Shown here in pieces: positions 1 through 17,893 of a DNA stretch of 64,000 nt. Within the stretch, counting starts at the first letter, position 1, and each line of letters begins with the position of its first letter. The notes under the pieces are model-generated. The model was not told the origin of the DNA, searched no databases, and saw only the letters and a list, made by a program, of their open reading frames with translations. The DNA comes from Nitrospirota bacterium (GTDB taxonomy: Bacteria; Nitrospirota; Thermodesulfovibrionia; SZUA-242): NCBI GenBank assembly GCA_027021335.1, contig JALUUO010000016.1:1776-65775 (forward strand), given 5' to 3'. Position numbers and translations under genes: made by a program.

Positions 1-960
1 GATATCATTCTCGTCTGTCTGGCTGTCACAATCATTATCAATGCCGTCGTCACAGACCTCTCTTGCCTCTGGATACCTTGCCGGATCGTTATCGTCGCAG
101 TCGCCGGCGCACCATGCTACACCATCACCATCTGCGTCCACATCAGTGGATGGCCTGGCTCCGTCACAGTTTGAATCCTTGCCGTCGCAGATCTCAACAG
201 CGCCTGGATAGACACTCGAGTCATTGTCGTCACAGTCTATAGGACCGCACGCCCCACCTGAAGTTGAATATCCGTCTCCGTCCACGTCTGTTTCCACGCA
301 GGTAAGGCAATTTGGATCTGTTGCACAAGATGAATAATCAGCGCAATCGCTAAGCCCGTCGCAGTTGTTATCCTTGCCGTCACCGCATAGCTCGATAGCT
401 CCTGCATACACATCAGGATCACTATCATCACAGTCGTCACCACCACAAATCGTTAATGAATGTCCGTCACCGTCGTTATCCGGACAAACACATCCTGCCT
501 CATCCAGGCTACCGTCGCAGTTGTTGTCTTTATTGTCTCCACAGATTTCAATGTTGCCGGGATATACTGATGCATCAAAATCGTTGCAGTCGGGCGGATT
601 GTCACAGAGCCTTACTCCATCTCCGTCTGGGTCTCTTTCGTTATAGGGCAGTATACCGTTACAGTCGTCATCAATTTTATTACATAGCTCTACCGCGCCG
701 GGATATCTCGCCGGATCGTTATCATCGCAGTCGCCGGCGCACCATGCTACACCGTCACCATCAGCATCCACGTCAATAAATGACTGATATCCGTCACAGT
801 TTGAATCCTTACCGTCACAGATCTCGGCTGCATTTGGATGTACTTTGGCATCCTGATCATCACAGTCGGTCTGGCTCCCGTTTAAGCAACTTGTATCTCC
901 GGGGTTGCCGTAGCCGTCTTGATCGATGTCAATACACTGCGCCCGAAGATTCGGAGCCCA
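1..960. repeat. Direct repeat copy 1. 960 bp are identical to 2817..3776 and cover the MopE-repeat coding region of the two tandem paralogs
   Basis: Base-by-base comparison of lines 1-960 with 2817-3776. Identity ends at ...ttcggagccca (about 960 and about 3776), after which the sequences diverge. Confidence 0.85.
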
Positions 961-1033
961 CATGCATAAAACAAAAACAGCCCACAACATTATGCTTGAA
1001 TACTTTAGTAGACTTTTTAATAGAGTTTTCATG
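1..1033 (-). CDS. Partial CDS (N-terminal about 344 aa; C-terminus lies beyond the window start). Secreted protein with MopE-like Cys/Asp-rich metal-binding repeats, paralog of the next gene and probably also a multiheme cytochrome
   Basis: Minus-strand ATG at 1033 preceded by GGAGG RBS. Translated N-terminus MKTLLKSLLKYSSIMLWAVFVLCMWAPNLRAQCIDIDQDGYGNPGDT... matches the N-terminus of the 1050..3827 protein. nt 1-960 are identical to nt 2817-3776. Confidence 0.6.
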
Positions 1034-1049
1034 AATTCTCCTTCCTTTT

Positions 1050-3827
1050 TTAACGGCGGCGTCCGGTACGTCGTCTGTCTCCCCCCATGCGCGGTGGTTG
1101 AAATCCACGCTCATGTTTATGACACATTGTGCAATCTCGTCCTGAATTATGTGCCTGACCGCCTGGGGCTGTTCCGTCGGCCTGATGATGATTTGTTTGA
1201 GTGTGGCATGTATTACATATGTAGTTTTCCGTGGACATGTCATCCGGACGATCTATCAGATCATAGGCAAAACTGTAGGGTCCTGTCCTGGCTTCGAACA
1301 CCACCGGGGTTCCGCGAACCAGACTGCGTATAAATGCCAGATTTATATTATTGCGGAAATTGACCTGTTGTCTCATCGGGTTGTGGCACTCGACGCAATT
1401 GAGAGAGGCTAGTTGGCCGGTATATGGATCTACGTATTTGTCACTGTAATGGGCTATAACTTTGATATCAGAACCGCCGTTCTGGGCATTCGGACTATCA
1501 GCTTTATGACAACCGTAGCATTTGCTGTTGTCGATAGGAGAGTCAAAGACAGCATCCACTATATCCCCGTTTTCATCCGCCGTGTGACATACCACGCAAT
1601 CAAAAACATTATGAGGAGGAGGAGGTTGCGTCGGTAGGAAGGCGTTACTATGTGAATGACAGTTAGTACACTTTTTACCGTCATTGTGTCCTATATAACC
1701 GAATTCGTCATTATCCGCAGGCGCGCCTCCATCATAGTGATGATGGTTGGTTATGGTATGACAGGTTTCACATACGTTTTCATTGTGAGGAGGGCCATCT
1801 GCAAACGAATCCTCTCCCTGATGGCTTGTGAAAACTATATTGCTATCCGGTATGACACTACCTGAAAGAGTTGATCGTATAAGCTTTATATTTGTTTGTT
1901 CGAACATGGGATTATGACAATCCACACAGGAATTGTTGTAGATATATTTGCCAGATCCGTTTTCCGAGGTGTGGGCAAGCACATCCGGCGCTTCCGGAAA
2001 GCTATCTTTTAATATGCCTAAAGGCGTATGGCACTGCTTGCATTTTGCACTTGGTATTTCAGCACTGTAATCAATAATTCCGTTCCAGTCATCCATGTGA
2101 CAATAGTTACAGTTACTCAGGAAATCCTCTGTATTATGCGGCGGCTGGGGTGTTGCTCCTGCCGGTGAGAAACCTGCGGAGTGGAGATGGCACTCAGTGC
2201 ATTTTTTGCCGTCATTATGCGACTGTCCACCCGGGGCTGTTCCGTCGTTTTGGTGATGATTGGTTCGGGTATGGCAGGTTTCGCATATGTTTTCATTATG
2301 AGGAGGACCGTCTGCAAACGAGCCCGGACCTTCACCGGCCGTAAATTCAACATAGCTTTCGTTATGTTTACCAGTGGCTTGGTTGTCTAAACAGATATAT
2401 TCTTTAATAAGCTTGCCGTATGATGTCCCGTACTTACGGTTCTGCTCCTGTTGGTGAGGGTTGTGACAAGTTACACAATGCATATCCCAGTCTCCATACT
2501 TGGTTCCCAGTGTCAACGAGGAGTGAACCTTTACGTTTGGAGCAGAGCCGAAGCCGTAGGGAAAAGGATCTGGATATTGTGCTTTTAGCACTCCGTTTAG
2601 AGGATCAGATGTGTCAGCCGGATCTGCATGACAACGTTGGCATTGATAGTTTCCGCCCGGTACCGCATTGCCTTCCGCATCTTTATAATGACACTTGCCG
2701 CAGCGCAGCTCTGTATTGTCAGGGTGCAGGGATTCGTCCGGATTAAGCAGGTCAGCCAGATGCGGCGGGTCTTTTGGTGTTGTTTTGGTTCCGCAGGTCG
2801 GTGGACCGCAGTCGGCGATATCATTCTCGTCTGTCTGGCTGTCACAATCATTATCAATGCCGTCGTCACAGACCTCTCTTGCCTCTGGATACCTTGCCGG
2901 ATCGTTATCGTCGCAGTCGCCGGCGCACCATGCTACACCATCACCATCTGCGTCCACATCAGTGGATGGCCTGGCTCCGTCACAGTTTGAATCCTTGCCG
3001 TCGCAGATCTCAACAGCGCCTGGATAGACACTCGAGTCATTGTCGTCACAGTCTATAGGACCGCACGCCCCACCTGAAGTTGAATATCCGTCTCCGTCCA
3101 CGTCTGTTTCCACGCAGGTAAGGCAATTTGGATCTGTTGCACAAGATGAATAATCAGCGCAATCGCTAAGCCCGTCGCAGTTGTTATCCTTGCCGTCACC
3201 GCATAGCTCGATAGCTCCTGCATACACATCAGGATCACTATCATCACAGTCGTCACCACCACAAATCGTTAATGAATGTCCGTCACCGTCGTTATCCGGA
3301 CAAACACATCCTGCCTCATCCAGGCTACCGTCGCAGTTGTTGTCTTTATTGTCTCCACAGATTTCAATGTTGCCGGGATATACTGATGCATCAAAATCGT
3401 TGCAGTCGGGCGGATTGTCACAGAGCCTTACTCCATCTCCGTCTGGGTCTCTTTCGTTATAGGGCAGTATACCGTTACAGTCGTCATCAATTTTATTACA
3501 TAGCTCTACCGCGCCGGGATATCTCGCCGGATCGTTATCATCGCAGTCGCCGGCGCACCATGCTACACCGTCACCATCAGCATCCACGTCAATAAATGAC
3601 TGATATCCGTCACAGTTTGAATCCTTACCGTCACAGATCTCGGCTGCATTTGGATGTACTTTGGCATCCTGATCATCACAGTCGGTCTGGCTCCCGTTTA
3701 AGCAACTTGTATCTCCGGGGTTGCCGTAGCCGTCTTGATCGATGTCAATACACTGCGCCCGAAGATTCGGAGCCCAGACTACCAGAACTAAAATACAACT
3801 CAGAAGTAGCTTTAAAAAAAACTTCAT
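1050..3827 (-). CDS. Secreted fusion protein: N-terminal MopE-like (DxDxDGDG / CxxDCDDxDxxxxPGAxExCdGxDnDCdG) putative metal-binding repeats plus a C-terminal multiheme c-type cytochrome with 15 CxxCH motifs
   Basis: The ORF track shows a 932-aa ORF. The likely true start is MKFFLK at 3827 with a GGAGG RBS, followed by a signal peptide. I counted 15 CxxCH motifs: CGKCH, CQRCH, CVTCH, CETCH, CTECH, CNYCH, CKQCH, CVDCH, CETCH, CTNCH, CVVCH, CYGCH, CVECH, CNTCH and CTMCH. The module FADGPPHNENxCETCH...HNDGKKCTxCH is triplicated. Confidence 0.75.
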   Translation of the reverse strand: MKFFLKLLLSCILVLVVWAPNLRAQCIDIDQDGYGNPGDTSCLNGSQTDCDDQDAKVHPNAAEICDGKDSNCDGYQSFIDVDADGDGVAWCAGDCDDNDPARYPGAVELCNKIDDDCNGILPYNERDPDGDGVRLCDNPPDCNDFDASVYPGNIEICGDNKDNNCDGSLDEAGCVCPDNDGDGHSLTICGGDDCDDSDPDVYAGAIELCGDGKDNNCDGLSDCADYSSCATDPNCLTCVETDVDGDGYSTSGGACGPIDCDDNDSSVYPGAVEICDGKDSNCDGARPSTDVDADGDGVAWCAGDCDDNDPARYPEAREVCDDGIDNDCDSQTDENDIADCGPPTCGTKTTPKDPPHLADLLNPDESLHPDNTELRCGKCHYKDAEGNAVPGGNYQCQRCHADPADTSDPLNGVLKAQYPDPFPYGFGSAPNVKVHSSLTLGTKYGDWDMHCVTCHNPHQQEQNRKYGTSYGKLIKEYICLDNQATGKHNESYVEFTAGEGPGSFADGPPHNENICETCHTRTNHHQNDGTAPGGQSHNDGKKCTECHLHSAGFSPAGATPQPPHNTEDFLSNCNYCHMDDWNGIIDYSAEIPSAKCKQCHTPLGILKDSFPEAPDVLAHTSENGSGKYIYNNSCVDCHNPMFEQTNIKLIRSTLSGSVIPDSNIVFTSHQGEDSFADGPPHNENVCETCHTITNHHHYDGGAPADNDEFGYIGHNDGKKCTNCHSHSNAFLPTQPPPPHNVFDCVVCHTADENGDIVDAVFDSPIDNSKCYGCHKADSPNAQNGGSDIKVIAHYSDKYVDPYTGQLASLNCVECHNPMRQQVNFRNNINLAFIRSLVRGTPVVFEARTGPYSFAYDLIDRPDDMSTENYICNTCHTQTNHHQADGTAPGGQAHNSGRDCTMCHKHERGFQPPRMGGDRRRTGRRR
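2817..3776. repeat. Direct repeat copy 2 (see 1..960)
   Basis: Identical ORF-track entries 237..446 vs 3053..3262 and 365..646 vs 3181..3462 (offset 2816). Confidence 0.85.
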
Positions 3828-3883
3828 GACTCCTCCATAGTGACGCATAATAGGGTGTTTTTTTGTTTTAGGTTACTTTTAGG

Positions 3884-5623
3884 TTAATAGCTGAAACCCC
3901 GATGATTGCGTCCATGGCACCGCAAGTAGCATCTGCCTTTGAATGTTCCTAAGTCTTCGAATTTTAACTCACCACTCATTCTTTCAGGAGAAACAACGGA
4001 TGTGTCAAAATTGATAAGATGTGCGTTATTAACAGCATTCCCCTGAGAACTGCTTATGCCGTGAGGGTCGTGACATATTGCACATGGCGCGTTTTGTCTT
4101 ACTATATGAAAGTAGTGCCTGGCAAAACTTTCGTTGCCCAGTATGCTGTTTCTGTCGTGGCACTTATAACATAGCGCGTAGTTGTCAGGGCTTTCACTTG
4201 TGTAATCATTCATTATGTATTGCCTTTCAAGAAGGTAAGGATTTTGTGAGCCGTGAGGTCCTGCCGGGCCTGACCCTCCGGCCCCGGGGCCATTGTTATT
4301 GCTGTGACAGTCGGTGCAGTAGATGACACTGGCTGTTGTGTATCCAGGCAGAAGACTTGGAACGTTTGGGTTTCGTCCAGGCCCTTCGACCGGATGGTAT
4401 GCCGGGTTACTTAAATCAAACTGAAGCCGTCTGTTTAACTGACGTATCTGTCTTGGCACCGCTGTTGTACCCTCGGCGCTGTCTCCATGACATTTAAAAC
4501 ATATCTCATATTGGTAAGAAGCTGTTTTTACGGGCACTCCCTGGGCATTTACTCCGGTTACTCCCATTTGCACGCCTTTTACGTTTGGGGCGCTTGCCTC
4601 TGAACTGTTCACCTGGTGGGGGTTATGGCAATCCATGCATTCCACGTGTCTTTGTACTGTCAGAAAATTTTCTTTTGGTTCATGAATTCCGGCTGTACTG
4701 GCCACAGGATGAAAGGAAAGTTTTGAAAACTGGCTCTCGATATTCAGGGCAGCCACATTCCCATTATGACAAGGGAAACAATTGTTTTCTTCTGCATACT
4801 CATTAAGCAACCTTTCTTGACTGCCGGCGCTGTGTGGACGGTGGCAGTTTTCACATGCATTTTCTGCGACAGTAGTCCATTCGGTATGTTTCCATGGATC
4901 TGGAGCTATTCCGTTCCAAGTGGACGTAGAAAGATTATGCGAGCAGGAAGACCATCCTGTTTTCTGATGGCACTTAAGGCATAAAGCCGATGATGAATTG
5001 ACCACTCTAAGAAACTTACCATTGGCGTTGTTATGTGGGTCATGGCATGAAATACACTGTAACTCATTGTTTTTATCCAGCTTGACTTCATCGATAAGCA
5101 GTGAAGGGTTTTTGAATTCAGGGTTTACTATCGAAAGATAGCTGTCATATACAAAAGAGATAGGATGATCGTCCGAAAGGTCACTGGTAAGTGCTGCTGG
5201 ACCTGAATCCAGGTATCGTTGTGTCATATCGATTTCAAGTAGTCTGGAGCCGAGATCACCTAATGCTATGGTTCCGTCATGACAAGTCAAGCAGAGCCTT
5301 GAAGCACCTGTTGGCTGTCCGATGTTTGTCTGAATTGTTGTGCTGCTATAAGGTATGTAGGTGGCGGTAGAGTCCCGCTTATTCCATAACAGCCCCACTC
5401 CTTGCGCTTTGTGCGGTGTGTGGCAGAAAACGCATACTTCGCCTTCACTTATAGCTTTTATGGTTCCCGGGCCGGAAACCGAAAGATTGTGCTTGGAATC
5501 CACGACACTCATTGATGAGGCCGGCAGAGCTGACAGCAGGAGGATCAGCGGCACGGCAACATAAAACAACCATGTTGTATTAGATGAATTTATGAATTTT
5601 TTATATATATACGGTCTCTTCAT
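3884..5623 (-). CDS. Multiheme c-type cytochrome (11 CxxCH plus one CxxxCH), secreted
   Basis: 579-aa ORF with an N-terminal hydrophobic segment. Motifs: CVFCH, CLTCH, CISCH, CLKCH, CENCH, CFPCH, CMDCH, CFKCH, CTDCH, CYKCH, CAICH and CYLRCH. Confidence 0.8.
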   Translation of the reverse strand: MKRPYIYKKFINSSNTTWLFYVAVPLILLLSALPASSMSVVDSKHNLSVSGPGTIKAISEGEVCVFCHTPHKAQGVGLLWNKRDSTATYIPYSSTTIQTNIGQPTGASRLCLTCHDGTIALGDLGSRLLEIDMTQRYLDSGPAALTSDLSDDHPISFVYDSYLSIVNPEFKNPSLLIDEVKLDKNNELQCISCHDPHNNANGKFLRVVNSSSALCLKCHQKTGWSSCSHNLSTSTWNGIAPDPWKHTEWTTVAENACENCHRPHSAGSQERLLNEYAEENNCFPCHNGNVAALNIESQFSKLSFHPVASTAGIHEPKENFLTVQRHVECMDCHNPHQVNSSEASAPNVKGVQMGVTGVNAQGVPVKTASYQYEICFKCHGDSAEGTTAVPRQIRQLNRRLQFDLSNPAYHPVEGPGRNPNVPSLLPGYTTASVIYCTDCHSNNNGPGAGGSGPAGPHGSQNPYLLERQYIMNDYTSESPDNYALCYKCHDRNSILGNESFARHYFHIVRQNAPCAICHDPHGISSSQGNAVNNAHLINFDTSVVSPERMSGELKFEDLGTFKGRCYLRCHGRNHRGFSY

Positions 5624-5673
5624 AGCCTTTTTGGACCTCCTTGTTTTTCGGTTACATATTCCAACTTCTTAGG

Positions 5674-6735
5674 TTATTCCTTCACGTACTGGAAAACCTG
5701 TATTCTTTGGTTAAATGAATCGGATACATATATGCGGTCGTTACTGTCAATTAAAATGCCTGCAGGTAAATAGAACTCGCCCGGTTTACGGCCTGGAGTT
5801 CCAAAATAAAGCAGAGCATGCCCTTTGGGGTTGAATATCTGAATATTGTTGAATTCTGCATCAACCACATATATGTGGTTGTCACTGTCCACAGCTATGC
5901 CTCTTGGCTTGGAAAACGCTCCGGGGCCGTCGCCTGCTATACCGAAACTACTTAGAAAACCGCCGTCATTACCAAAAATCTGAACTCGGAAGTTCATAGA
6001 GTCTGTAACATACAGGTTTCCTTTAGTATCCAGACATATATTTGTAGGGTAATTAAATTCACCAGGCTTCTCTCCACGTTGACCTAAGTCAAATAACAGC
6101 TTTCCATTAGTACGGTTATAAACACGTATTTTATGCGCCATGGTATCAACAACATAAAGTTTTTCAAGCAGGCTGTCTACGACCAGACCGGTAGGCCTCA
6201 TGAATTCACCAATTGTTGTTTCCAGCAATCCATCTCGGTTAAATACATAAACCTTCTTTGCCACAGAGTCTGATACATATATTTTCCCATCCTCGGCCAC
6301 ATCTACGTCGATTGGGGAAAGGAAAACCATATTATCTTTTTTGGCAGGGATCTGACGGTATTTACCGTCCGGCAGATGAAATATATGTACTAACCTGCCT
6401 CCTGTGTCAACAATAAGAAGATTATCTTTTTTATCCAAGGCTAACCCGTATGGACGGATAAGCAAAGGCATATTTTTACCTAAAAACAGTTCTTTAACCC
6501 GATTTAAAAAGCCTGTGCTTTTAGATATATCCCTTGGAAAGTTTATCTCTCTTTCAAAAACTATCCTTGCCTTTTGTGGTGGCGGTGGCCATGTGATGGC
6601 CTGACTGTTTTTTTCTTTTTGCTGGAGTTGAGTTGTTTCAGAACATCCTGCAAAAAAAGCGCTTACGAGTATTAACATGCAGAAGATCTTTATTGCCGGA
6701 AAAAACGAAAGCCTGGCTGTTTTTGAAATTAACAT
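5674..6735 (-). CDS. NHL-repeat (six-bladed beta-propeller) lipoprotein
   Basis: Repeated NHL-type motifs: LYVTDSMNFRVQIF, IYVVDAEFNNIQIFNPKG and IYVSDSFNQRIQVF. The lipobox-like segment is AFFAGCSE. The ORF track extends the ORF to 6843, overlapping the upstream gene, so the start is taken at the internal Met (MLISK...) about 6735. Confidence 0.7.
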   Translation of the reverse strand: MLISKTARLSFFPAIKIFCMLILVSAFFAGCSETTQLQQKEKNSQAITWPPPPQKARIVFEREINFPRDISKSTGFLNRVKELFLGKNMPLLIRPYGLALDKKDNLLIVDTGGRLVHIFHLPDGKYRQIPAKKDNMVFLSPIDVDVAEDGKIYVSDSVAKKVYVFNRDGLLETTIGEFMRPTGLVVDSLLEKLYVVDTMAHKIRVYNRTNGKLLFDLGQRGEKPGEFNYPTNICLDTKGNLYVTDSMNFRVQIFGNDGGFLSSFGIAGDGPGAFSKPRGIAVDSDNHIYVVDAEFNNIQIFNPKGHALLYFGTPGRKPGEFYLPAGILIDSNDRIYVSDSFNQRIQVFQYVKE

Positions 6736-6745
6736 CAATTGTGTT

Positions 6746-8716
6746 TTACCTCCTGCTTCCAAAGAGCCTTCGAGCTCTGAGGTAGATGCGCTCACGTTTT
6801 TCTTTTCCAATGGTTGTTTCCTGGTTTCGATTAAGGTTTTCATAGGTTAAGGTTATATCCAAAGTTCTGTAGCGCCAACGTAAATTAGTACGGAAGTTGA
6901 ATGAAACCTGTTTTTCACCCACAAGTTCCTGGTTGCGGTACTGTGTTTCAATATCACACTTTGCTCTGTATGGAAGGAATAAAAACAACTTTGCGGAAAC
7001 TGTACGGTCGATTGAATCCTCAATATACTCGAATGTGGATGTTTCAGAGTAGCTGGCGTTTAGATTTAAAACAGGGTTGAAATATCGTAAATTTTTTAAT
7101 CTGAAAATGAGGACTTCGGAGTATTTTGTGGTTTTATATGGATTTCTAACAGACTTATGAATAGTTTTTTCTGCTCTGGTTGTTGAATTTTTCCACTTTA
7201 TTTCAGTGCCGAATGACTTGTCTCTTATATCTTCAAGCCTGCCGATATCGTTTCCGCCTTTTAGCGATTGATCAGAACTGCCCGCATAGTAAAATACCCT
7301 CCAAGCCCTTTTTATATCCAGTTGTCCCCCATAAGTTTGAGTTCGCGTTTCGAATTCGATTGGAGGAGTAGGTTCAAAGTCGTAGCTTATATAAACTGTC
7401 TTACCTAACAGAAAATCTCCATATGCCGGTAAGAGTCTTATTTTGGTAAGTGTTCCGGATTTTTCCAGTCTGTAGTGAAGCCCTTCTTCAATAGGAAGTC
7501 CGGTTACTGGATCGGTGATCTCAAGGCTGTCTTTATCCTCTATTTTAATTGTCGCCTCATCTACAAGATCCCGTTTTAGAAGAATTACATCATCGCCCTC
7601 CGGGTTTTCTCCAAAAAAATGTTCTTCTCTTGAAATGTGGCTTTTGTCTTCAGAAAAGTTTTCATCTGTGTTTTCTATGAAAGTACGGTAGTTGAGAGTC
7701 AGCCTGCCAAAAGAAAGGCGTTTACGGTAATTGAAACGTAATTCTGCAGAAAGTGTATCTTTTTTGCCTGAGTTTAATGTGTAATTTTCTCCGTTTAGTT
7801 CGACACCTGTACTAAGGCTTTCATAAAGTTGGTGTTTCAGGCCGGCGCGGTACCGGTGTTGTTTTGTCACTTTGCCTACCAGCCTGGAATCCTCATAGTC
7901 GTAACGATAGTAGGAATCAAGGTTTTTTGTATGTCTAATATAGATGTTTTCTCCTACTGTAATATCTCTGTATGGAATTGTGCCTGTCTGGTCTCGCCAG
8001 CGAAACAGGCTTGTCAATGCATGCTGCTCTTTAGAACCGAAGTGGTAAGTGTTTGAGGCATTGACCAGATCTGTCTGTAAATCCAGATGTGCCACAGCTT
8101 GGGACCTTCTTTCGTTTTCATACCTTAAGGTACTTGTCCCTAGCATGCCTTCGTTACGAATGCTCAGGTATGCTCTGTTAAGTTTGTCATTGGTTTTGTC
8201 CTGTCCCTCTCCAACAGAGCTCAGCGTGTCATAACCAAGGTCTGTAGGAAACAATTTATGCCGGTAATGAAGAGCAACCCCTTTTTGGGTGGTAGTGAGA
8301 CGTTGGCTTTCGAAAAAACTGCTGTTTGTATCCTGAGTGTTTCTGTTTGCAAGCAGGGTCATTGATATGGGATGAGACTTTAAAATAAGCATTGATAGGT
8401 TGTAATCAGTGTACTTGTCTCTTAACTCCTGCTGAAACTGCATATTGGATGTTTCAGACTCCTGCTTGAAAATAAACTTCGTGTCGGCTTTGAATTCGAG
8501 AAGGCGTGGGTGATAGACGTAGCCATCCACGCCCAATCCCAGTTCTTCAAATAATGCTTCGTCCAGTTCTTTAATAGGCATGTTCGTCCGCAAATTTTCG
8601 CGGTAATCATTTTCCCGCTCAGCTCCAAGTCCGATAAAACCTCCTAGTCTATTAAAACTGACTGAAGTGATAGGGGTAGTCTGGTTTTGGGCCTGTAATA
8701 AAGGAACCTGTAACAT
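6746..8716 (-). CDS. Hypothetical beta-rich protein, possibly an outer-membrane beta-barrel/porin-like component of the cytochrome cluster
   Basis: 656-aa ORF rich in Y/R/N/T/S with alternating-residue segments typical of beta-barrels. In-frame upstream translation (…KRFKIAIITCFYII-MLQVPLLQA↓QNQ) reads like a signal peptide, but I found no canonical start codon upstream. Confidence 0.5.
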   Translation of the reverse strand: MLQVPLLQAQNQTTPITSVSFNRLGGFIGLGAERENDYRENLRTNMPIKELDEALFEELGLGVDGYVYHPRLLEFKADTKFIFKQESETSNMQFQQELRDKYTDYNLSMLILKSHPISMTLLANRNTQDTNSSFFESQRLTTTQKGVALHYRHKLFPTDLGYDTLSSVGEGQDKTNDKLNRAYLSIRNEGMLGTSTLRYENERRSQAVAHLDLQTDLVNASNTYHFGSKEQHALTSLFRWRDQTGTIPYRDITVGENIYIRHTKNLDSYYRYDYEDSRLVGKVTKQHRYRAGLKHQLYESLSTGVELNGENYTLNSGKKDTLSAELRFNYRKRLSFGRLTLNYRTFIENTDENFSEDKSHISREEHFFGENPEGDDVILLKRDLVDEATIKIEDKDSLEITDPVTGLPIEEGLHYRLEKSGTLTKIRLLPAYGDFLLGKTVYISYDFEPTPPIEFETRTQTYGGQLDIKRAWRVFYYAGSSDQSLKGGNDIGRLEDIRDKSFGTEIKWKNSTTRAEKTIHKSVRNPYKTTKYSEVLIFRLKNLRYFNPVLNLNASYSETSTFEYIEDSIDRTVSAKLFLFLPYRAKCDIETQYRNQELVGEKQVSFNFRTNLRWRYRTLDITLTYENLNRNQETTIGKEKRERIYLRARRLFGSRR

Positions 8717-8853
8717 TATTATATAAAAGCAGGTGATAATTGCTATTTTAAATCTTTTTACTATGTTGCACCTCGTACATCACGTATTGAATTATTTTTT
8801 GTTTATACTTCGCTGATAAAACCATTAAAAACCATTAAAATATTAAACCGGCC

Positions 8854-9504
8854 TCACTCTGTTTTAAGCATAAAACGGGCCTGGCTTCCATGAGGGTCAT
8901 GACACTCTGTACAGGCTGTATCGTCTATTTCCTCATGAATCACTGTTTTTAAAAGTCGATTTTCGTTGTGGCATTTAAAGCAGAGCTTCTGAATAGGCCA
9001 GATCTGCAGCATATACGGGTTTGCGGTTTCATGAGGATGATGACACTCCAAGCAAGCCCCGAATTGAACAGGTGCATGTACCCATGCAAAAGTTTTGCCC
9101 AAATCCTCTTGTGACATATAGTCATGACATCTAAGGCAAATTCTGAGTTTTTTATCTAAAAGGGTGAAACCAACCGGAGCTGCAATAGTCCTTTTTGTTG
9201 TCTGGTGGCATCCATAACACATTTTTACGGCATATGGTGGATGTTGAACCGTTGTAGGAGACAGCTCTACCGGAGCTTTAGTTTGATCCTGGGTGTTTCT
9301 TTTAGCGGCGGTATTAAATTCTTTCCGGTCGGTCGGTTTGATCTCCGGTGGTGTGTCAGTTGTTTTTTTTGTCTTTTGTATTGGCGGAACGCCATCGAAA
9401 AAAAAGGATAAAACACGGTGTTTCGTCATCTGGTCACAACCCTGTAGCATAAAAAAGGCTATGAAAATTGCCGCTATCAAAGTCAATATTTTTTTTTTGA
9501 TCAT
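8854..9504 (-). CDS. Pentaheme c-type cytochrome lipoprotein
   Basis: 216-aa ORF. Signal/lipobox MIKKKILTLIAAIFIAFFMLQGC. Motifs: CYGCH, CLRCH, CLECH, CFKCH and CTECH. Confidence 0.8.
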   Translation of the reverse strand: MIKKKILTLIAAIFIAFFMLQGCDQMTKHRVLSFFFDGVPPIQKTKKTTDTPPEIKPTDRKEFNTAAKRNTQDQTKAPVELSPTTVQHPPYAVKMCYGCHQTTKRTIAAPVGFTLLDKKLRICLRCHDYMSQEDLGKTFAWVHAPVQFGACLECHHPHETANPYMLQIWPIQKLCFKCHNENRLLKTVIHEEIDDTACTECHDPHGSQARFMLKTE

Positions 9505-9505
9505 G

Positions 9506-10699
9506 CTATTTTGTCTTTTTATTTTTTAACGCTTTTGGAGCTCCTGACCCATGTTTTTTACCATATTCTTTCTGATTCTCAACTTCCCCTTTTGCAAGGG
9601 GGCTTCCTTCTCTTGCATTACCAAATCCATAAATATTGATGTATGGCGGTCCGTATTGGCTTGTGACTAAAATCAGGTGTTCTAAAATGAAATCATCATG
9701 GCTGAGCGAATTAAAATAAGACAGCAGGCTTTTGTCTGTTGTAATTCCGGCTGGAAGCCAGAGAGCTCCGGGCACCATGGCGTCTCCCCATCCACCAAAG
9801 AAGAGAGCCGGTTTTCCCTCTGCTGTGAATATTTGAACATTTTCAAACGCTGAATCGACGACATAGATGAAACCTTTATCATCAACAGCAACTCCCTTTG
9901 GCCTGGCAAAGGTTCCAACAGCATCTCCGCATTGTCCAATAACAAGGAGGACATTTCCATCCGGGTCAAACTTCTGTATTCTGCAGTTGAGCGTGTCCGA
10001 AACGTAAAGATTTCCATCTTTGTCAATTGTTAGATTTGTCGGGTGATAAAACTGTCCTTCGTCCTGTCCAGGATCACCGATAATGCTTAAACGTTCTCCG
10101 GTTTTTTTATCCAGGACTTCAACTTCATGGTCTCTTGAATCAGCAACATACAACTTATCCCCAAAGACGGCAACATCAGTCGGCTTAAACTGTTCTTTAT
10201 TGCCAAAAGCCCGCTTGAAATTATTATCCTTATCAAACACAACGACCTGGTGGCGGTCATAGTCGGCAACATATTTTGTCCCGTTTTTATCAAAAGCAAT
10301 ATTTATAGGGCGAATTAGATTTCCGGCTCCCTGGTCGTGAAACCAGTCAAACTTGTTGTTTACAACGTCAATAACCATGACAGTTCCGAACTGGACGTCA
10401 CATACATAGATAATACCGTTATACACTTCTATTCCGTAAGGTTTCCCAAAGTTTCTAACGCTTTCTCCTCCAACAACAAAGGTTTCGAATGCGGAGCGTT
10501 TCTCTACATCCCTGGAAGATGAGATACGTTTAAGAAACTGTACTTTTGGCGGTTGAGGCGGAGGTGGAAAGAACCTGGTGCCAAGTTTTTGCCCGGTTGT
10601 TGCGCATCCACTCATAAGCAGAAGGGTAGACAGGCATGTAACCATTAAATAAAAGGGTGTAACAGTATGTGAAAGGAACTTTATAACTATGGTTTGCAT
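9506..10699 (-). CDS. NHL-repeat beta-propeller lipoprotein, paralog of 5674..6735
   Basis: NHL-type motifs: IYVCDVQFGTVMVIDV, YVADYDRHQVVVFDKD, LYVADSRDHEVEVLDKK, LYVSDTLNCRIQKFDPDGN and IYVVDSAFENVQIF. Lipobox LLLMSGC. Confidence 0.75.
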   Translation of the reverse strand: MQTIVIKFLSHTVTPFYLMVTCLSTLLLMSGCATTGQKLGTRFFPPPPQPPKVQFLKRISSSRDVEKRSAFETFVVGGESVRNFGKPYGIEVYNGIIYVCDVQFGTVMVIDVVNNKFDWFHDQGAGNLIRPINIAFDKNGTKYVADYDRHQVVVFDKDNNFKRAFGNKEQFKPTDVAVFGDKLYVADSRDHEVEVLDKKTGERLSIIGDPGQDEGQFYHPTNLTIDKDGNLYVSDTLNCRIQKFDPDGNVLLVIGQCGDAVGTFARPKGVAVDDKGFIYVVDSAFENVQIFTAEGKPALFFGGWGDAMVPGALWLPAGITTDKSLLSYFNSLSHDDFILEHLILVTSQYGPPYINIYGFGNAREGSPLAKGEVENQKEYGKKHGSGAPKALKNKKTK

Positions 10700-10791
10700 G
10701 CTCTTTCCTCCGGCTTTAATGTGCTTTATAATATATTGATTTTATTCAGTAATGTAAACTTTATTGCCAAAAAAAATCAAGGCATTATTTT

Positions 10792-10831
10792 GCCGAAAAA
10801 AAGCCCTGCGCTCTTAATCGGGGCACAGGGC
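10792..10831 (-). terminator. Rho-independent terminator or attenuator on the minus strand, immediately after the first cytochrome gene
   Basis: Minus-strand sequence GCCCTGTGC-(loop 12 nt)-GCGCAGGGC forms a 9-bp stem including one G-U pair, followed by TTTTTTT. Confidence 0.5.
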
Positions 10832-10858
10832 CATAAATATGGTTGCTACAAATGCTAT

Positions 10859-11569
10859 TTATTTTATATGACAGGTTAGGCAAAGTCCGCTGGCTGTTCC
10901 ACCTTGATTCGCTGATTGAGCTACTCTCAACAGGTGAGTGTTAGGAACGGACTCCTGGTCATGGACGTCATGGCATGAACTGCACTGTACCCTGCCGTTG
11001 TCCAGAACATCTGAGATGGTTCCTGAGAGCCCCATAACCCTGGTTGTCGGATCCCAGAGATTTGGATCAGCTACATTATTATATTCAATAGATATCGGAT
11101 GAGTGTTGCTCATGTTTTTGTCGCCGCTTACGTCCGGGATGCCGGGTATCTGGAACTGGCCGCCTGCAAAGCTGTCAATATAAATTGATCCGCTATTTCC
11201 GTCAAACTGATCAATGCCTATTGTTCCATCGTGGCAGCCCAGGCAGAGCTTCGAAACACCCATGGGTTCAGGTTCGGCAGCGCCGTCTATGAAGTTGGCA
11301 TGACTATCCTCCGCATACATAAGATAGGTAGAGGAGCTTAGATCGTGGTTCCATAAAAGTCCGAAATCAGCTCTGTTACTGCCGAAATCATGGGGTACAT
11401 GGCATACACGGCATATTTCACCGCTGGTATTCCATGTTCTATCGCTAAAATCATGAGGAGATCCAACAATTCCTGCTCCGTTACCTTCTGCAAAAGAGAT
11501 GGTTGCAGTCATGCCTATTACCATTATTGCTGTACAACACAATGTAGCTAATTTTTTCATTTGTAACAC
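10859..11569 (-). CDS. Tetraheme c-type cytochrome, secreted. First gene of the operon
   Basis: 236-aa ORF. Signal peptide MLQMKKLATLCCTAIMVIGMTATISFA. Motifs: CRVCH, CLGCH, CSSCH and CLTCH. Confidence 0.8.
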   Translation of the reverse strand: MLQMKKLATLCCTAIMVIGMTATISFAEGNGAGIVGSPHDFSDRTWNTSGEICRVCHVPHDFGSNRADFGLLWNHDLSSSTYLMYAEDSHANFIDGAAEPEPMGVSKLCLGCHDGTIGIDQFDGNSGSIYIDSFAGGQFQIPGIPDVSGDKNMSNTHPISIEYNNVADPNLWDPTTRVMGLSGTISDVLDNGRVQCSSCHDVHDQESVPNTHLLRVAQSANQGGTASGLCLTCHIK

Positions 11570-11734
11570 CTTCCCTTAACTTAGTATTTAATTTAAAATT
11601 TATTTTGAAACTATATATGTATTTCTTAAATATTTTTACGTAAAATTAAAATATTATCAGAACCCTTCACCTCCTTTATTTTTATTAAAAACTATCCCTC
11701 CAAAATATTTTTATAGTTGATTTGCTTTTGTAAC

Positions 11735-11750
11735 TGCAATTACCGGGCCA
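11735..11750 (-). promoter_or_regulatory. Candidate sigma-54 (RpoN) -24/-12 promoter driving the cytochrome/NHL operon
   Basis: Minus-strand sequence is TGGCCCGGTAATTGCA, against the consensus TGGCAC-N5-TTGCW. There is one mismatch and the spacing is exact. It lies about 165 nt upstream of the ATG at 11569. Confidence 0.5.
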
Positions 11751-11859
11751 TGATTGGGTTTATCAGGTGACCTGCTAGAAAGCCTTGCTATAATTAAGAT
11801 AATTATAGAGAGTTTGATTGTTGTTAATGATCGGGAAAGAAAAGAAGTGCGTGTTATTT

Positions 11860-11893
11860 CCCACCAACTGAGCCAAAGCGCTCAGTTGGTGGG
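11860..11893. promoter_or_regulatory. 14-bp perfect inverted repeat (CCCACCAACTGAGC-N6-GCTCAGTTGGTGGG). Candidate enhancer-binding-protein (UAS) site or terminator hairpin
   Basis: Perfect palindrome read directly from the sequence. It is centred about 130 bp upstream of the sigma-54 candidate and about 60 nt downstream of the stop of the upstream cytochrome gene. Confidence 0.45.
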
Positions 11894-11955
11894 TGTAAGT
11901 AAAGGTCTTTTGTGCCGCTTATTTTCAGGATAAGAAGTGGTTTTCGACCCCAGAT

Positions 11956-13359
11956 TCAACGATTTTTCACAGCTTTTTCCCTGTTATACTTTCTTGGAAA
12001 GTGACATGCTGGTGCGCATCCGCCGCCGTTGTCATCTATCTTGAAGTTAAGTGGAAACTGCCATTTACCGAATTTTGTGATTTCCCTGATATGCTTTGGC
12101 CCTTTAGATCCATGGATATCATGACATACAACACATCTTCGTCCCTTTTTGGGGTCTTTCTTAACATGAACGTAATGGAGATTGGTTGTTCCGTTTCTAA
12201 AACCGGTGCTCTCGGATGTCTCCTTTTCTTGAACGAGTTCCTCATCATGGCAGCCGAAACATAGGCTATACTTTTCCGGCGCAAACTTGGTGTAAAACGT
12301 GGATGGAAACGCTCTGCGTAACATTCTCCATTCGTTTGAGCCATGAGGATTGTGGCAGGCGGCACAATCACCATCCATCAAAATCGGACCATGAAGTTGC
12401 GGGCGCTCTTTAAGCCATCTTTTCATGTTTATTAGTCTGCCTTTGTCGGTTTTTATTGCACGGTTATGACACTTCAGGCAGAGGTCCATAGTCTCCTCGG
12501 CTTTGAGCTGCTTTGGGAAATCTGATGCGTGTGGATCATGGCAGTTTACGCAGCTTCCCTCGGCCTGGATGGCTCCGTGTGGGGTCTTTACCTGTGTTAT
12601 ATGTTCTTCTTTATCCGAATGGCAGCCATAGCATAGCTCTGGTGGTGATAGAAGGAGTTGGTATTTATTTTCGGTGCCGTGTGGACTATGACATCCGGTG
12701 CACCCAACCATCTCAATGGCTGCGTGGACATACTTCTTGGTTGTAATTGCCTCTTCTTTATCGACATGGCACATAAGACAGACATCTTTGCCTTCAGCAG
12801 GCAGCCGGAAAGGATAGGGGGACTCGTGTGGATCGTGACATATTGTGCACTCTCCTGCTGCCACAGGAGCATGAACATATTTGTGTGTAGTTTTATCATC
12901 CTCATGACAGTTAAAGCAAAGCTTGCTGACCGGAGAGTCTAAAAGTTGATATGGGTTGGGTGATTGGTGAGGACTGTGACACATGGTACAGTCTCCGGAT
13001 GCCACCGGTACATGAACCTCTTTTTGAGTGTTTTTCGGATCATGACACATGTAGCACAAGACGTCACCGGTATCGATAACTTTAAATTTATTGTCTTTTG
13101 TAAGTTCATGACATACCGTGCAGTCCCCCATGGCAAAGGCGGCGTGAACATAGCCGTCTGGTGGAGGGGTGGCAAGATCTTTGTGACATTTAAAGCAGGT
13201 TGCAGGGTTTGAAGCATCAAGTCCTGCATGGCCGGCTTCAGCTGAAAAAGCAGCTTGTGGACTAAAGAGGAAAAGCCGGGAAATAAGTATGCCGGCAAAG
13301 ATAATTAAAGTTTTTTTCAAAAAGTGGTTATTGTTTAGATAATATTTTGGATACAGCAC
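11956..13359 (-). CDS. Multiheme c-type cytochrome (14 CxxCH plus one CxxxCH)
   Basis: 467-aa ORF starting at GTG. The likely real start is TTG at about 13321, giving MKKTLIIFAGILISRLFLFSPQAAFSA. Motifs: CFKCH, CTVCH, CYMCH, CTMCH, CFNCH, CTICH, CLMCH, CTGCH, CYGCH, CVNCH, CLKCH, CAACH, CFGCH, CVVCH and CAPACH. Confidence 0.8.
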   Translation of the reverse strand: MLYPKYYLNNNHFLKKTLIIFAGILISRLFLFSPQAAFSAEAGHAGLDASNPATCFKCHKDLATPPPDGYVHAAFAMGDCTVCHELTKDNKFKVIDTGDVLCYMCHDPKNTQKEVHVPVASGDCTMCHSPHQSPNPYQLLDSPVSKLCFNCHEDDKTTHKYVHAPVAAGECTICHDPHESPYPFRLPAEGKDVCLMCHVDKEEAITTKKYVHAAIEMVGCTGCHSPHGTENKYQLLLSPPELCYGCHSDKEEHITQVKTPHGAIQAEGSCVNCHDPHASDFPKQLKAEETMDLCLKCHNRAIKTDKGRLINMKRWLKERPQLHGPILMDGDCAACHNPHGSNEWRMLRRAFPSTFYTKFAPEKYSLCFGCHDEELVQEKETSESTGFRNGTTNLHYVHVKKDPKKGRRCVVCHDIHGSKGPKHIREITKFGKWQFPLNFKIDDNGGGCAPACHFPRKYNREKAVKNR

Positions 13360-13702
13360 TCCTGACCTCGTTTACCTGAAAAGGTTTATTAATAAAAGTA
13401 GTGACTCCGGCTCTTTTCGCTTCTTCTTTATCTAGCAGCGAATCGTATGCTGTCATCATTATAATTTTTGTGCTTGGTTGTAGTTCCATGGTTTTTTTCG
13501 CCACTTCTATGCCGTCGCAATCGGGCATGACAAAGTCGGTTATGATTACATCAAAATGTTTCTGTTTTATTTTTTCTATGGCTTCGGTTCCGTCCGAGGC
13601 CGAGACAACGTTGAATTTATCTTTGCCCATGGACTCTTGAATGGACCACCTCACAAGTTTTTCATCATCCACAATGAGTAAATTCATTTTATCTCTCATC
13701 AT
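13328..13702 (-). CDS. Single-domain response regulator (CheY-like receiver)
   Basis: LLIVDDEKLVRWSI...DVIITDFVMPDCDGIEV...KIIMMTAYDS, with the receiver-domain Asp residues present. Confidence 0.8.
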   Translation of the reverse strand: MMRDKMNLLIVDDEKLVRWSIQESMGKDKFNVVSASDGTEAIEKIKQKHFDVIITDFVMPDCDGIEVAKKTMELQPSTKIIMMTAYDSLLDKEEAKRAGVTTFINKPFQVNEVRSAVSKILSKQ

Positions 13703-13791
13703 GGCCTTGTTTATATGACTTTAGAGGGGTATCCATGTTTAGTTATATGCAATATCAATGCCACATGTTTTGCCCCTCCGTTTTTACCCGC

Positions 13792-15162
13792 TCAGAGAAG
13801 GTAGTATTTTTTCATGCGATATCTAAGGGCGTCTCTGCCCATGCTGAGCAGCTTTGCAGCATGGACCTGATTGCCATGTGCCGCTGCGAGAGCTTGTTGA
13901 ATAAGCTCTTTTTCGACCTCTTCAAGTGAAACGCCTTCAGAGGGAAGGCTGACGGTAGAGCTTGCCGCGCTTAACGCCTTTTCAGGTTGAGTGATTTCGA
14001 TAGGCAGGTGCTCAGGCAGAATAACCTCTTCGTTTTCTAGGATGATTGCACGCTCTATCACGTTTTTCAGTTCACGCACATTTCCGGGCCAGCGATAGCG
14101 TAACATCATTTCTTCAGCTTTTTGAGAGATTCCTTGAACTTTCTTTTTGAAATCCCTGTTAAAAACATTTATGAAATGTTGAATCAAAAGCGGGATATCC
14201 TCTTTACGCTTACGCAGTGGTGGCAGGAATATTGGAAATACCTTCAGACGATAATATAGATCTTCCCGAAAAGTGCCTTTTGCAGAGGCTTCTTTTAAAT
14301 CTTCGTTGGTTGCGGCTATAATTCTGGCATTCACCACGGTCTCCTTTATACCGCCCAGGCGTTTGAATGATTTGCTTTCGATCACTCTAAGAAGTTTTGC
14401 CTGTGTACTCATAGGCATGGCTCCAATCTCATCAAGTAAGATTGTTCCGCTGTCAGCCAGTTCAAAAAACCCTTTTTTCATGGCCTTTGCATCTGTGTAG
14501 GCGCCTTTTTCGTGGCCGAAGAGTTCACTCTCGATAAGGGTTTCTGGAAGAGAAGTGCAATTAATTTCCAGGTAAGGGTTTTCTGCTCTCTTGCTCTGGT
14601 AGTGAATCGCCTTGGCGATCACATCCTTTCCCGTCCCGCTTTCTCCTTGCAGAAGCACTGTTGTTGCATCACTCTTGGCTATTTTTTCAACCATTTCGAA
14701 TACATTTTTCATGGCCTCAGTCTGCCCTACGATGTTTTGCATTCCGTAAAGGCTTTTCTGCTGATTCTTAAAGACATGGACTTCCTTTTTTAGGCTTACA
14801 GTTTCGAGAGCCTTGGAGATAGTTATCTTCAATTTCTCAAAATTAAAAGGTTTTTCGATGAAATCATATGCTCCAAGCTTCATGGCTTTTACCGATGTAT
14901 TGACGTCTCCGTACGCAGTCATCATTATAACCAGCGAATCTTCACGCAGTTTCTTTACCTTTTCCAGGATTTCTATTCCATCGGCTCCTGGAAGTTTGAT
15001 ATCTTGAAGAATAAGATCAGGACGTTCCTGTTCTATGATTTCCATGGCTTCCTCTCCGCTGTTTGCGGTCAGAACTTCGTAGTCTTCCTTCTGCAGGTTT
15101 TCTTTAAGAGACCAGCAGATTAATTTTTCATCGTCCACTACCAGGATGGTTGCTTTAGACAT
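13792..15162 (-). CDS. Sigma-54-dependent transcriptional response regulator (NtrC/AtoC family: receiver, AAA+ sigma-54 activation and Fis-type HTH domains)
   Basis: ILVVDDEKLICWSL...; Walker A GESGTGKDVIAKAIH; GAYTDA motif; C-terminal HTH AAHGNQVHAAKLLSMGRDALRYRMKKY. Confidence 0.85.
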   Translation of the reverse strand: MSKATILVVDDEKLICWSLKENLQKEDYEVLTANSGEEAMEIIEQERPDLILQDIKLPGADGIEILEKVKKLREDSLVIMMTAYGDVNTSVKAMKLGAYDFIEKPFNFEKLKITISKALETVSLKKEVHVFKNQQKSLYGMQNIVGQTEAMKNVFEMVEKIAKSDATTVLLQGESGTGKDVIAKAIHYQSKRAENPYLEINCTSLPETLIESELFGHEKGAYTDAKAMKKGFFELADSGTILLDEIGAMPMSTQAKLLRVIESKSFKRLGGIKETVVNARIIAATNEDLKEASAKGTFREDLYYRLKVFPIFLPPLRKRKEDIPLLIQHFINVFNRDFKKKVQGISQKAEEMMLRYRWPGNVRELKNVIERAIILENEEVILPEHLPIEITQPEKALSAASSTVSLPSEGVSLEEVEKELIQQALAAAHGNQVHAAKLLSMGRDALRYRMKKYYLL

Positions 15163-15165
15163 TTC

Positions 15166-15528
15166 TTAACTATGCTCCTTTGTATATCTGGCAATATACT
15201 CCGCTAGGAGTTTCCGGCAGTGCTCATCACACTTTGTAAACCGGATACCTTTGCCAAAGACGGATTTTCCCCCTTTTTCAGCTTCTCCGGACCAGACTAC
15301 TTGCCCGGATATCCGCAACGGTTTTATTCCTCCAGGAGGGAGTGAAAATTCAAGTTGTATCTCGGTGCCTATTCCCATAGGAATGTCTGTTTTTATAAAA
15401 ATTCCCCCCTCTCCTATATTAACCGCTTCCACCTCATATACTTCCTTTCTTTCTTGCTGTCGTACCCAGTATGTTACAATAATCGACAGCGGTACACGCA
15501 GTGATAACCTTTTTTCCCTAAAGCTCAT
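15166..15528 (-). CDS. PilZ-domain protein (c-di-GMP-binding type)
   Basis: RLSLRVPL...(RxxxR) and ...VNIGEGGIFIKTD (DxSxGG-like). The start is taken at the internal MSFREK to avoid overlap with the upstream kinase. Confidence 0.55.
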   Translation of the reverse strand: MSFREKRLSLRVPLSIIVTYWVRQQERKEVYEVEAVNIGEGGIFIKTDIPMGIGTEIQLEFSLPPGGIKPLRISGQVVWSGEAEKGGKSVFGKGIRFTKCDEHCRKLLAEYIARYTKEHS

Positions 15529-15541
15529 ATGTCTAATCTTG

Positions 15542-17256: not shown

Positions 17257-17778
17257 ATGAAGATGAAAACCTGGATGGTAATTGTGATGGCTGCGATGTT
17301 GGCGTTTGCAGTAGCAGATGGTGTAGATGCTGCTGATTATGTGGGGGTAAAAAAATGTAAGATGTGCCATATGAAACAGTACAAAAGCTGGAGCAAAACC
17401 AGAATGTCAAAGGCTTTTGAACTTCTGAAACCGGGCGTCGCAGCAGAGGCCAAGAAGGCTGCAGGTGTAGACCCAAACAAGGACTATACTGCAGATGCTT
17501 CGTGCCTGGGATGCCACACGACCAATGGAAAAGCTGATATGCCTGGTGTTCAGTGTGAGGCTTGTCACGGTGCTGGATCGGACTTCATGAAAGTCATGAT
17601 GACCAATCGGAACTATAAGCGTGAGGATATTAAGAAGAAGGGGTTGAATCCGGTGCCTGATGAAGCTGTATGTAAGAAGTGTCATAACAAGTCGAGTCCG
17701 TTTTATAAAGAGTTCAATTATGCTGAGCGTGTAAAAAAAGGAACACACGAGCACTTTCCGTTGAAAAAGCAGCATTAA
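17257..17778 (+). CDS. Tetraheme c-type cytochrome (c3/c7-like), periplasmic
   Basis: RBS AAGGAGGGG. Signal peptide MKMKTWMVIVMAAMLAFAVA. Motifs: CKMCH, CLGCH, CEACH and CKKCH. Confidence 0.8.
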   Translation: MKMKTWMVIVMAAMLAFAVADGVDAADYVGVKKCKMCHMKQYKSWSKTRMSKAFELLKPGVAAEAKKAAGVDPNKDYTADASCLGCHTTNGKADMPGVQCEACHGAGSDFMKVMMTNRNYKREDIKKKGLNPVPDEAVCKKCHNKSSPFYKEFNYAERVKKGTHEHFPLKKQH

Positions 17779-17815
17779 TACTTGCGGACAATATAAACTG
17801 TTTTAGTAGCTAAAG

Positions 17816-17852: not shown

Positions 17853-17893
17853 TAATCAAAATGGAAATCTAAAAAAAAAAGGGGGACAAACTC

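Follow-up and report, generated by a model that had tools for sequence, protein, structure and literature searches.

Gene conversion as the likely origin of a perfectly identical tract in two tandem MopE-repeat multihaem cytochrome genes of an uncultured Nitrospirota bacterium

How do two neighbouring cytochrome genes come to share a long stretch of DNA without a single difference between the copies? The preliminary description of the window (the whole 64-kb stretch of DNA that was analysed) had reported that nt 1-960 are identical to nt 2817-3776. Self-alignment showed 0 mismatches when all 960 positions were compared directly, and blastn gave 100% identity, so that no mismatch had been overlooked. 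The identity ended sharply at the 5' border, where positions 961 and 3777 were mismatched, and past this border the two stretches were essentially unrelated, with mismatches at 1370 of the 1856 remaining offset positions. Identity over 960 nt with such an abrupt end cannot be due to chance. No third copy of the repeat was found by blastn in the 64-kb window. The remaining repeats within the gene, which had been put at about 90% identity, were slightly less alike than this, with maxima of 85.6% over 125 bp and 85.9% over 71 bp and with the others at 72-78% (blastn).

The two copies lie in tandem cytochrome paralogues, the second of which continues past the window start, as originally described. 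As both genes lie on the minus strand, the copies are read from 960 to 1 and from 3776 to 2817. Gene A (1050..3827, minus strand) encodes P0123, a secreted MopE-repeat / 15-haem c-type cytochrome of 925 aa. It probably starts at the ATG at 3827, behind a GGAGGA ribosome-binding site, with the longer ORF from 3848 unused. Gene B has its first 344 codons in the window (1..1032, minus strand) and extends past the window start by about 1,161 nt; its full product is P0001 (730 aa). P0123 and P0001 are encoded on one 66,853-bp contig, on which gene B is complete; the contig does not end at the window start, and the two genes are adjacent in the window. Gene A codes for 15 CxxCH motifs and gene B for 10.

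In this uncultured Nitrospirota bacterium, genes A and B come last in an operon-like series of genes for multihaem cytochromes and NHL-propeller proteins. Upstream of them, a 579-aa multihaem cytochrome (3884..5623, minus strand) served as the synteny anchor to the relatives and to an independent assembly. The spacer between genes A and B is 17 nt long (1033..1049, minus strand), reaching from the gene A stop codon (1050-1052) to the gene B ATG, and holds the ribosome-binding site GGAAGGAG. In the promoter and terminator scan, counts were not above those of shuffled sequences, and no promoter- or terminator-like sites were found in this spacer. Because 17 nt leave no room for a promoter or terminator, genes A and B are presumably co-transcribed. 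The tRNA and Rfam scans of the window were both empty.

The duplication had been given as 960 bp. This proved too short, since the window edge cuts the repeat: full-length comparison of P0123 with P0001 showed 540 identical residues, which implies a tract of probably about 1,620 bp. In gene A the full shared tract would occupy 2157..3776 (minus strand; codons 18-557, 1,620 bp), of which 2817..3776 (minus strand) matches the visible part of gene B. The copy in gene B (1..960, minus strand; codons 25-344 of P0001) is cut by the window start and probably runs on for about 660 bp more. These 660 bp outside the window are supported at the protein level only, and the 3' border, after residue 557 of A and residue 564 of B, is likewise known from the proteins only. 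The two copies agreed at all 123 four-fold codons of the visible tract (0/123 differing), and the four-fold sites compared with the relative L002 differed at 0.37 in the tract and at 0.42 in the upstream gene.

The secreted products of genes A and B share a common layout, in which a signal peptide is followed by six Cys/Asp-rich repeats of MopE type and these by c-type haem modules in a chain. What the visible 960 bp code for is the last part of the signal peptide together with MopE-type Cys/Asp repeats, without the haem-binding part. The full tract spans the end of the signal peptide (c-region WAPNLRAQ, within 2157..3776, minus strand, and part of the 540-residue identity), the six MopE-type repeats (about 2811..3752 in gene A, minus strand; Pfam PF11617, six times) and the first, five-haem module M1 (2169..2810 in gene A by the module limits, minus strand; five CxxCH). 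In both genes the hydrophobic N-terminal signal, read by eye, ends in LRA followed by Q. PF11617 matched six stretches in the shared tract with 207.1 bits against a cut-off of 27, and the Pfam c7, c3_2 and MtrC/MtrF II-IV domains (PF14522, PF14537 and PF22113, respectively) were also above their cut-offs. With several CxxCH motifs each, an export signal and matches to cytochrome domains, both products belong among the multihaem c-type cytochromes. No NCBIfam model reached its cut-off; with TIGR03508 (DmsE/MtrA-type decahaem) P0001 scored 30.8 bits against a cut-off of 192.2 and gene A had no match. Sequence searches against solved structures returned weak generic multihaem and MopE matches only (best multihaem match E 3e-5; 3OV0 E 0.06), and the match to MopE (2VOV) was weak as well, with E 0.0077 for the single sequence and 6.9e-5 for the profile.

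Outside the tract the two genes differ. Their signal-peptide n/h-regions, MKFFLKLLLSCILVLVV in gene A (3777..3827, minus strand) and MKTLLKSLLKYSSIMLWAVFVLCM in gene B (961..1032, minus strand), are unrelated in DNA. The preliminary description had held that signal peptide and promoter-proximal sequence both differ completely upstream of the repeat, and this stands for the signal peptides; it does not stand for the promoter-proximal region of gene B, where there is only the 17-nt spacer with its ribosome-binding site. On the other side, gene A has a C-terminus of its own (1053..2156, minus strand) made up of haem modules A2 (codons 558-731) and A3 (codons 732-925), and it stops abruptly past A3, while its closest homologues run on for 400+ residues.

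The C-terminal remainders of A and B were 57.8% identical, and A2 was 57.5% identical to the terminal module of gene B. A2 was 71.7% identical to P0017 and 63.8% to P0036, with A2 and A3 both about 72-73% identical to modules of P0017, which belongs to another organism. The gene B module was 86.7% identical to that of the relative and 60-65% identical to P0023, P0010 and P0008. By pairwise scores, P0017, P0032 and P0036 were nearer to A2 than the gene B module is, and P0121, P0023 and P0010 were nearer to the gene B module than A2 is, each of the two modules having its nearer counterparts in other organisms. By their sequences, genes A and B are old paralogues outside the tract, and their C-terminal modules are of different, widely shared types (A2+A3 versus B-type). 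The tract groups by genome and the flanks by gene type, with the body 100% identical between A and B and about 87-97% identical to the relative, as judged from pairwise scores rather than from a full tree. The pattern found is that of a conversion tract, a stretch of near-identity with abrupt borders between homologous but diverged flanks, in which the signal peptides are unrelated.

We infer recent interlocus gene conversion between the tandem paralogues as the origin of the identity, with a probability of roughly 0.6. The earlier suggestion of a very recent duplication or gene conversion is thereby supported, and conversion is the better fit because both flanks of the tract are homologous but anciently diverged. 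A simple recent tandem duplication of the whole gene was rejected: the 2,816-bp period is identical over about 1,620 bp only, and the rest is anciently diverged. In the proposed conversion, homologous, non-reciprocal recombination would have copied about 1.6 kb of one gene into the other, a tract that takes in the final eight codons of the signal peptide and extends four codons beyond the first haem module. All divergence within it would have been wiped out, with sharp borders remaining. The long direct repeat so created would then itself be a substrate for recombination, and a crossover between the copies would remove 2,816 bp and join the start of gene A to the end of gene B. The fused form so produced would be the form seen in the nearest relatives.

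A single fused gene, with the signal peptide of A, the body and the C-terminus of B, was found in all four assemblies of the nearest clade (L002, L082, L156 and the contig with P0122), with no two-gene form among them and thus no close outgroup in which two diverged bodies are seen. The contig L156 (a k = 31 Logan contig) passes through both junctions of the fused gene. This gene is the expected product of recombination between the repeats, and together with the break of an independent assembly k = 141 nt into the repeat it bears out the view that such a repeat is a hotspot for recombination and assembly failure. Same-strand neighbouring paralogues of the family recur in other genomes (L084, L161 and L162), adjacent or within about 1.4 kb of each other and with 67-77% DNA identity. 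In L084, 1.4 kb separates an A2-type gene from a B-type gene, and the two are 73.7% identical in DNA over 825 bp; their orthology to A and B is weak, given this distance and the different N-terminal architecture of P0036. The exact 48-mer of the gene B junction did not occur in the species-representative genomes, and the metagenome scan gave relatives only among its matches.

We infer that the two-gene form was lost in the relatives rather than gained in the lineage of the window. For a gain, a single-gene ancestor of the fused type would have had to acquire a unit of 2,816 bp made up of a copy of the body, A2-A3, the spacer and signal peptide B, either through recombination with a strain or paralogous locus in which such a pair already existed, or through duplication of the body joined to other modules. 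This we consider unlikely, although several observations are in its favour. Only the fused gene is present in all four assemblies of the nearest clade, and the abrupt end of gene A after A3, with homologues 400+ residues longer, gives the junction with gene B the look of a rearrangement scar. Synonymous divergence between the window and the relative showed no step along the body of the kind that an old crossover would leave and that would have favoured an ancestral pair with later deletion; it was uniform and equal to that of the flanking genes, which fits a body that was single-copy until recently equally well. However, a gain needs several steps, or else a donor with a tandem pair, by which the origin is merely moved elsewhere, whereas one crossover between the repeats explains the gene of the relatives in a single step. 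The base composition of the A-specific segment also argues against a gain, being unremarkable and not marked as foreign.

The contig itself might also mislead. MEGAHIT contig k141_5060 is 99.975% identical and ends at window position 3636, exactly 141 nt (its k) inside the repeat, and such a stop implies that both junctions are present in another read set. A stop of this kind marks a branch where the repeat begins and not the unbranched single path of an artefact. Upstream, the two copies are joined to different signal peptides (A or B), and downstream they continue differently (into A2, or into the B module in P0001); neither copy lacks unique junctions or lies at a contig end, as an artefact would. 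The perfect identity could still be imposed in part by the assembler, since short-read assemblers write identical copies, despite slight real differences, when they pass through one graph node twice. That the perfection as such is an assembly product, with two very similar copies (say 98-99.9%) or a variable copy number in the population written twice as one consensus, we hold to be distinctly unlikely. The source is apparently a metagenome contig (the 66,853-bp contig with these proteins is present at both NCBI and JGI), near-identical 1.6-kb repeats are inseparable for De Bruijn assemblers, and the MEGAHIT assembly of the same population broke at this place. No direct repeats of at least 300 bp at at least 97% identity were found in the fetched loci scanned, which suggests that contigs spanning such repeats are rare; the same absence is biased, because short-read contigs that hold such repeats rarely assemble. 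Against this, the break at exactly k = 141 means that identity in the reads extends over the first 141 nt or more. An assembly product would, moreover, change the degree of identity only, and the tract, far more alike than its flanks, would need the same biological cause. It is extremely improbable that there is no tandem duplication and that the contig is chimeric between strains or loci, for example between a strain with the fused gene and an unrelated locus. Chimeric metagenome contigs are possible and the fused form is known in related organisms, but the A-specific modules, the 17-nt spacer and the signal peptide of gene B form unbroken unique sequence with the tract on both sides, and this order without a tandem array would demand a 2.8-kb circle of the cytochrome gene only. 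In addition, the independent assembly has a second path into the tract at exactly the same base, and no fused protein of the window strain was present in the 90% cluster.

The shared identical stretch is real, and the gene conversion to which we attribute it is of an ordinary kind and involves no new mechanism. In practice, short-read assemblies will break or collapse at the locus, as happened in one independent assembly. Reads or peptides from the first 540 codons cannot distinguish genes A and B, and for such MAGs the number of multihaem cytochrome genes counted here is not reliable. The locus is also a clean case of modular extracellular cytochrome evolution, in which old haem modules were kept and the common N-terminal half was homogenised, and in which one crossover can fuse the pair. 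A highly speculative extension, to which we give very little weight, is that the direct repeat is put to use, with a shared export-and-anchor body carrying alternative haem-wire tails and with RecA-mediated switching between the two-gene and fused states, the fused state having been fixed in the related clade. Through deletion, re-duplication or conversion between the two bodies, a population would then pass between a state with two proteins, a long one with 15 haems and a short one with 10, and a state with one fused protein, so that an extracellular electron-transfer protein would vary heritably in length or type. What the MopE-repeat / multihaem family does is a more interesting question than the duplication.

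The classical case of concerted evolution by RecA-dependent gene conversion is that of tufA and tufB of Salmonella and E. coli. The rRNA operons are another case of concerted evolution of duplicated bacterial genes (PMC8022953). The likeness to genes A and B is that non-reciprocal homologous recombination keeps paralogues of the same genome identical or almost identical, with far more identity than their age would give. However, whole dispersed genes are homogenised in the tuf and rRNA cases (the tuf genes being inverted), while here an internal 1.6-kb tract is shared by adjacent, co-oriented genes. Unlike in those cases, the flanks of genes A and B encode different modules and the direct orientation permits deletion. 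Partial conversion tracts are described between the ancient paralogues prfA and prfB, the class-I release factor genes (PMC4530459). The likeness lies in a mosaic, sharp-bordered converted segment within otherwise anciently diverged genes; prfA and prfB belong to another protein family and are not tandem, and the tract of genes A and B is unusually long and perfectly identical.

At the protein level, MopE of Methylococcus capsulatus (PDB 2VOV), after which PF11617 is named, is a surface protein that binds copper. Its likeness to the products of genes A and B is confined to a short Cys/Asp motif, and copper binding by their repeats is putative. To our knowledge MopE is without a haem domain, unlike the products of genes A and B. 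Modular multihaem c-type cytochromes built from repeated units include the dodecahaem GSU1996 of Geobacter (3OV0), NrfB, MccA and MtrA, in none of which we know of a fusion with MopE repeats. The products of genes A and B resemble these proteins in having many CxxCH motifs arranged in repeated modules, and their genes sit among those of other multihaem cytochromes.

Window positions 1-960 and 2817-3776 showed no mismatch when compared position by position, and blastn self-comparison likewise returned 960 identities out of 960, as the preliminary description had claimed. The border of identity was sharp: base 961 differed from base 3777, and 1,370 mismatches followed in the next 1,856 offset positions. 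No third copy of the repeat was found within the 64-kb window. The other repeats within the gene, put earlier at about 90% identity, were indeed weaker than the main repeat, but the top two reached only 85.6% (125 bp) and 85.9% (71 bp) and the others 72-78%.

Both genes carrying the repeat lie on the minus strand, contrary to what had been implied. Gene A was called as an ORF at 1050..3848 (-); translation probably begins at ATG 3827, which has a GGAGGA ribosome-binding site ahead of it and gives a 925-aa product (P0123) ending at the stop codon at 1050-1052. Gene B starts with the ATG at 1032 (-) and continues out of the window; database records place its full 730-aa product (P0001) and P0123 on one 66,853-bp contig. 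The 17-nt spacer between the gene A stop and the gene B ATG contains GGAAGGAG. A scan of this spacer found no promoter or terminator, for which there is insufficient room, so we infer that genes A and B are co-transcribed.

P0123 and P0001 share 540 identical residues (W18/W25 through G557/G564), so the tract in gene A spans 2157..3776 (-), or 1,620 bp. The 960 bp originally described therefore stand for the visible part, because the window edge cuts the repeat; the final 660 bp of the gene B copy rest on protein identity only. The tract starts within the signal peptide, at the common c-region WAPNLRAQ, ends four residues past the first haem module, and contains six PF11617 MopE-type motifs (207 bits) and five CxxCH sites. 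The mature proteins would be exactly alike over their first ~530 residues, with differences confined to the tails.

Outside the tract, the signal-peptide n/h-regions were unrelated in DNA and barely alike in protein, bearing out the difference noted previously. The gene A tail consists of two more haem modules, A2 and A3 (15 CxxCH in total), and the gene B tail of a single terminal module (10 in total). A2 and the B module were 57.5% identical, and both were nearer to modules of other organisms: A2 to the database proteins P0017 (71.7%), P0032 (65.3%) and P0036 (63.8%), the B module to P0121 of a near relative (86.7%) and to P0023, P0010 and P0008 (60-65%). A3 was closest to P0017 (72.8%). An insertion, CHTPxGxLKxxFPxAPxVLxH, was common to A2-type modules and absent from B-type modules. 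The tails thus belong to old paralogous lineages, joined to a body without any divergence. The gene A terminus (1053..1120, -) reads ...CHKHERGFQPPRMGGDRRRTGRRR before the stop. The closest A2-A3 homologues (P0017, P0029, P0016 and P0022) run on ...GFQPVGGGNCLVCHNQSPP... for 400+ residues, so gene A looks truncated at the spacer before gene B, and the truncation point may be a rearrangement scar.

The copies differed at none of the 123 four-fold degenerate codons in the visible tract. Measured against the nearest relative (VAPH01012797.1, L002), four-fold divergence was 0.37 for this tract and 0.42 for the cytochrome gene upstream. The homogenising event is therefore far younger than the split from L002, and the initial interpretation, very recent duplication or gene conversion of tandem cytochrome paralogues, was judged correct.

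Each tract copy had unique junctions on both sides, and the A-specific modules, the spacer and the gene B signal peptide formed one continuous unique sequence with the tract on either side. A real tandem array appears to be the sole explanation of that order. An independent assembly (ENA ERZ27262676, contig k141_5060, 61,874 bp) was 99.975% identical to the window across 11,988 bp and ended at window position 3636, exactly 141 nt inside the tract. This break supports a real duplication, since with a second path joining at the repeat border a de Bruijn contig of k=141 halts 141 nt into the tract. An assembler passing twice through one repeat node writes identical copies even where the real copies differ slightly, so the perfect identity means that the copies are indistinguishable in this assembly.

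The closest sequences came from uncultured Nitrospirota at ~82-85% DNA identity: L002, CAYWZR010000206.1 (L082), Logan contig L156 and a JGI contig encoding P0122. In L002 and L156 an orthologous 574/581-aa cytochrome was followed by a single ~725-aa gene combining the gene A signal peptide, the body and the gene B terminal module. P0122 was the same chimera, and L082 started just within the body and continued through the B-type module. L156 (k=31) passed both junctions unbroken, so this clade really has a single copy. L158 (6008-7210) and L159 (2031-3233), Logan contigs that come from separate sequencing runs, share an exact stop point within the fused gene of the relative: 1,203 nt in, where the conserved haem motif YQCQRCHA lies. 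The stop probably reflects a 31-mer common to another paralogue in that genome.

The fused gene matches exactly the product expected of one crossover between the two direct repeats. We consider the best explanation (probability about 0.6) to be that resident tandem paralogues A and B underwent interlocus gene conversion, and that in the relatives a deletion between the direct repeats yielded the fused gene. The main rival takes the single gene of the relatives as the ancestral form and has this lineage acquire by recombination a 2,816-bp unit (body copy, A2-A3, spacer and gene B signal peptide); it seems less likely, as it requires several steps or a donor already possessing the pair. Two observations fit it: synonymous divergence from the relative is even along the body, and gene A stops abruptly at the end of A3, past which its nearest homologues go on. 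Conversion and gain have identical present anatomy and identical consequences. The main use of the finding is as a caution for assembly and annotation, and it illustrates modular cytochrome evolution.

No NCBIfam model matched the gene A or B protein at cut-off. Sequence searches of solved structures gave weak matches only, to the generic multihaem cytochromes MccA, NrfB, MtrA and NrfA (E ~1e-5) and to MopE (2VOV). Beyond gene A, an operon-like run (3884..17035, -) encodes multihaem cytochromes of 579, 216, 236 and 467 aa, two NHL beta-propeller proteins and a 656-aa protein (6746..8716, -) with no Pfam or NCBIfam match; the order of its cytochrome/propeller part was kept in L002 and L156. A mechanical ORF at 5674..6843 (-, 389 aa) runs 98 nt into the end of the 656-aa gene; the gene call of the independent contig, 354 aa with a start equivalent to window position 6738, removes the overlap. 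The run is preceded by genes for a response regulator, a sigma-54 response regulator, a PilZ protein and a HAMP histidine kinase. Further redox genes lie at 17257..23463 (+), encoding a c554-type cytochrome (173 aa), a cNMP-binding protein and an 831-aa molybdopterin oxidoreductase, with a 440-aa multihaem cytochrome at 18756..20078 (-). A sigma-54 two-component system is also among the neighbours of genes A and B. The two proteins may plausibly take part in electron transfer, either periplasmic or extracellular. Elsewhere, 41921..45811 (-) encodes a 1,296-aa protein of nearly all RCC1 repeats (17-18 copies; PF00415, 780 bits; PF25390, 890 bits), and neither tRNA genes nor Rfam families at gathering threshold were found across the 64-kb window.

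More distant genomes often had two to three same-strand MopE-repeat/multihaem paralogues, adjacent or at most ~1.4 kb apart. One locus (L084) had an A2-type protein of 922 aa and a B-type protein of 711 aa, and same-strand tandem rows occurred in L161 (688, 1046 and 1304 aa; 25-12336) and L162 (1037 and 1427 aa; 8001-15607). ResB and CcsA-type cytochrome c assembly genes come after the three-gene row of L161. Paralogue DNA identity within these three loci was only 67-77%. Neighbouring paralogy is thus a habit of the family, and the unusual feature here is the identical tract, itself a fresh instance of a well-known process.
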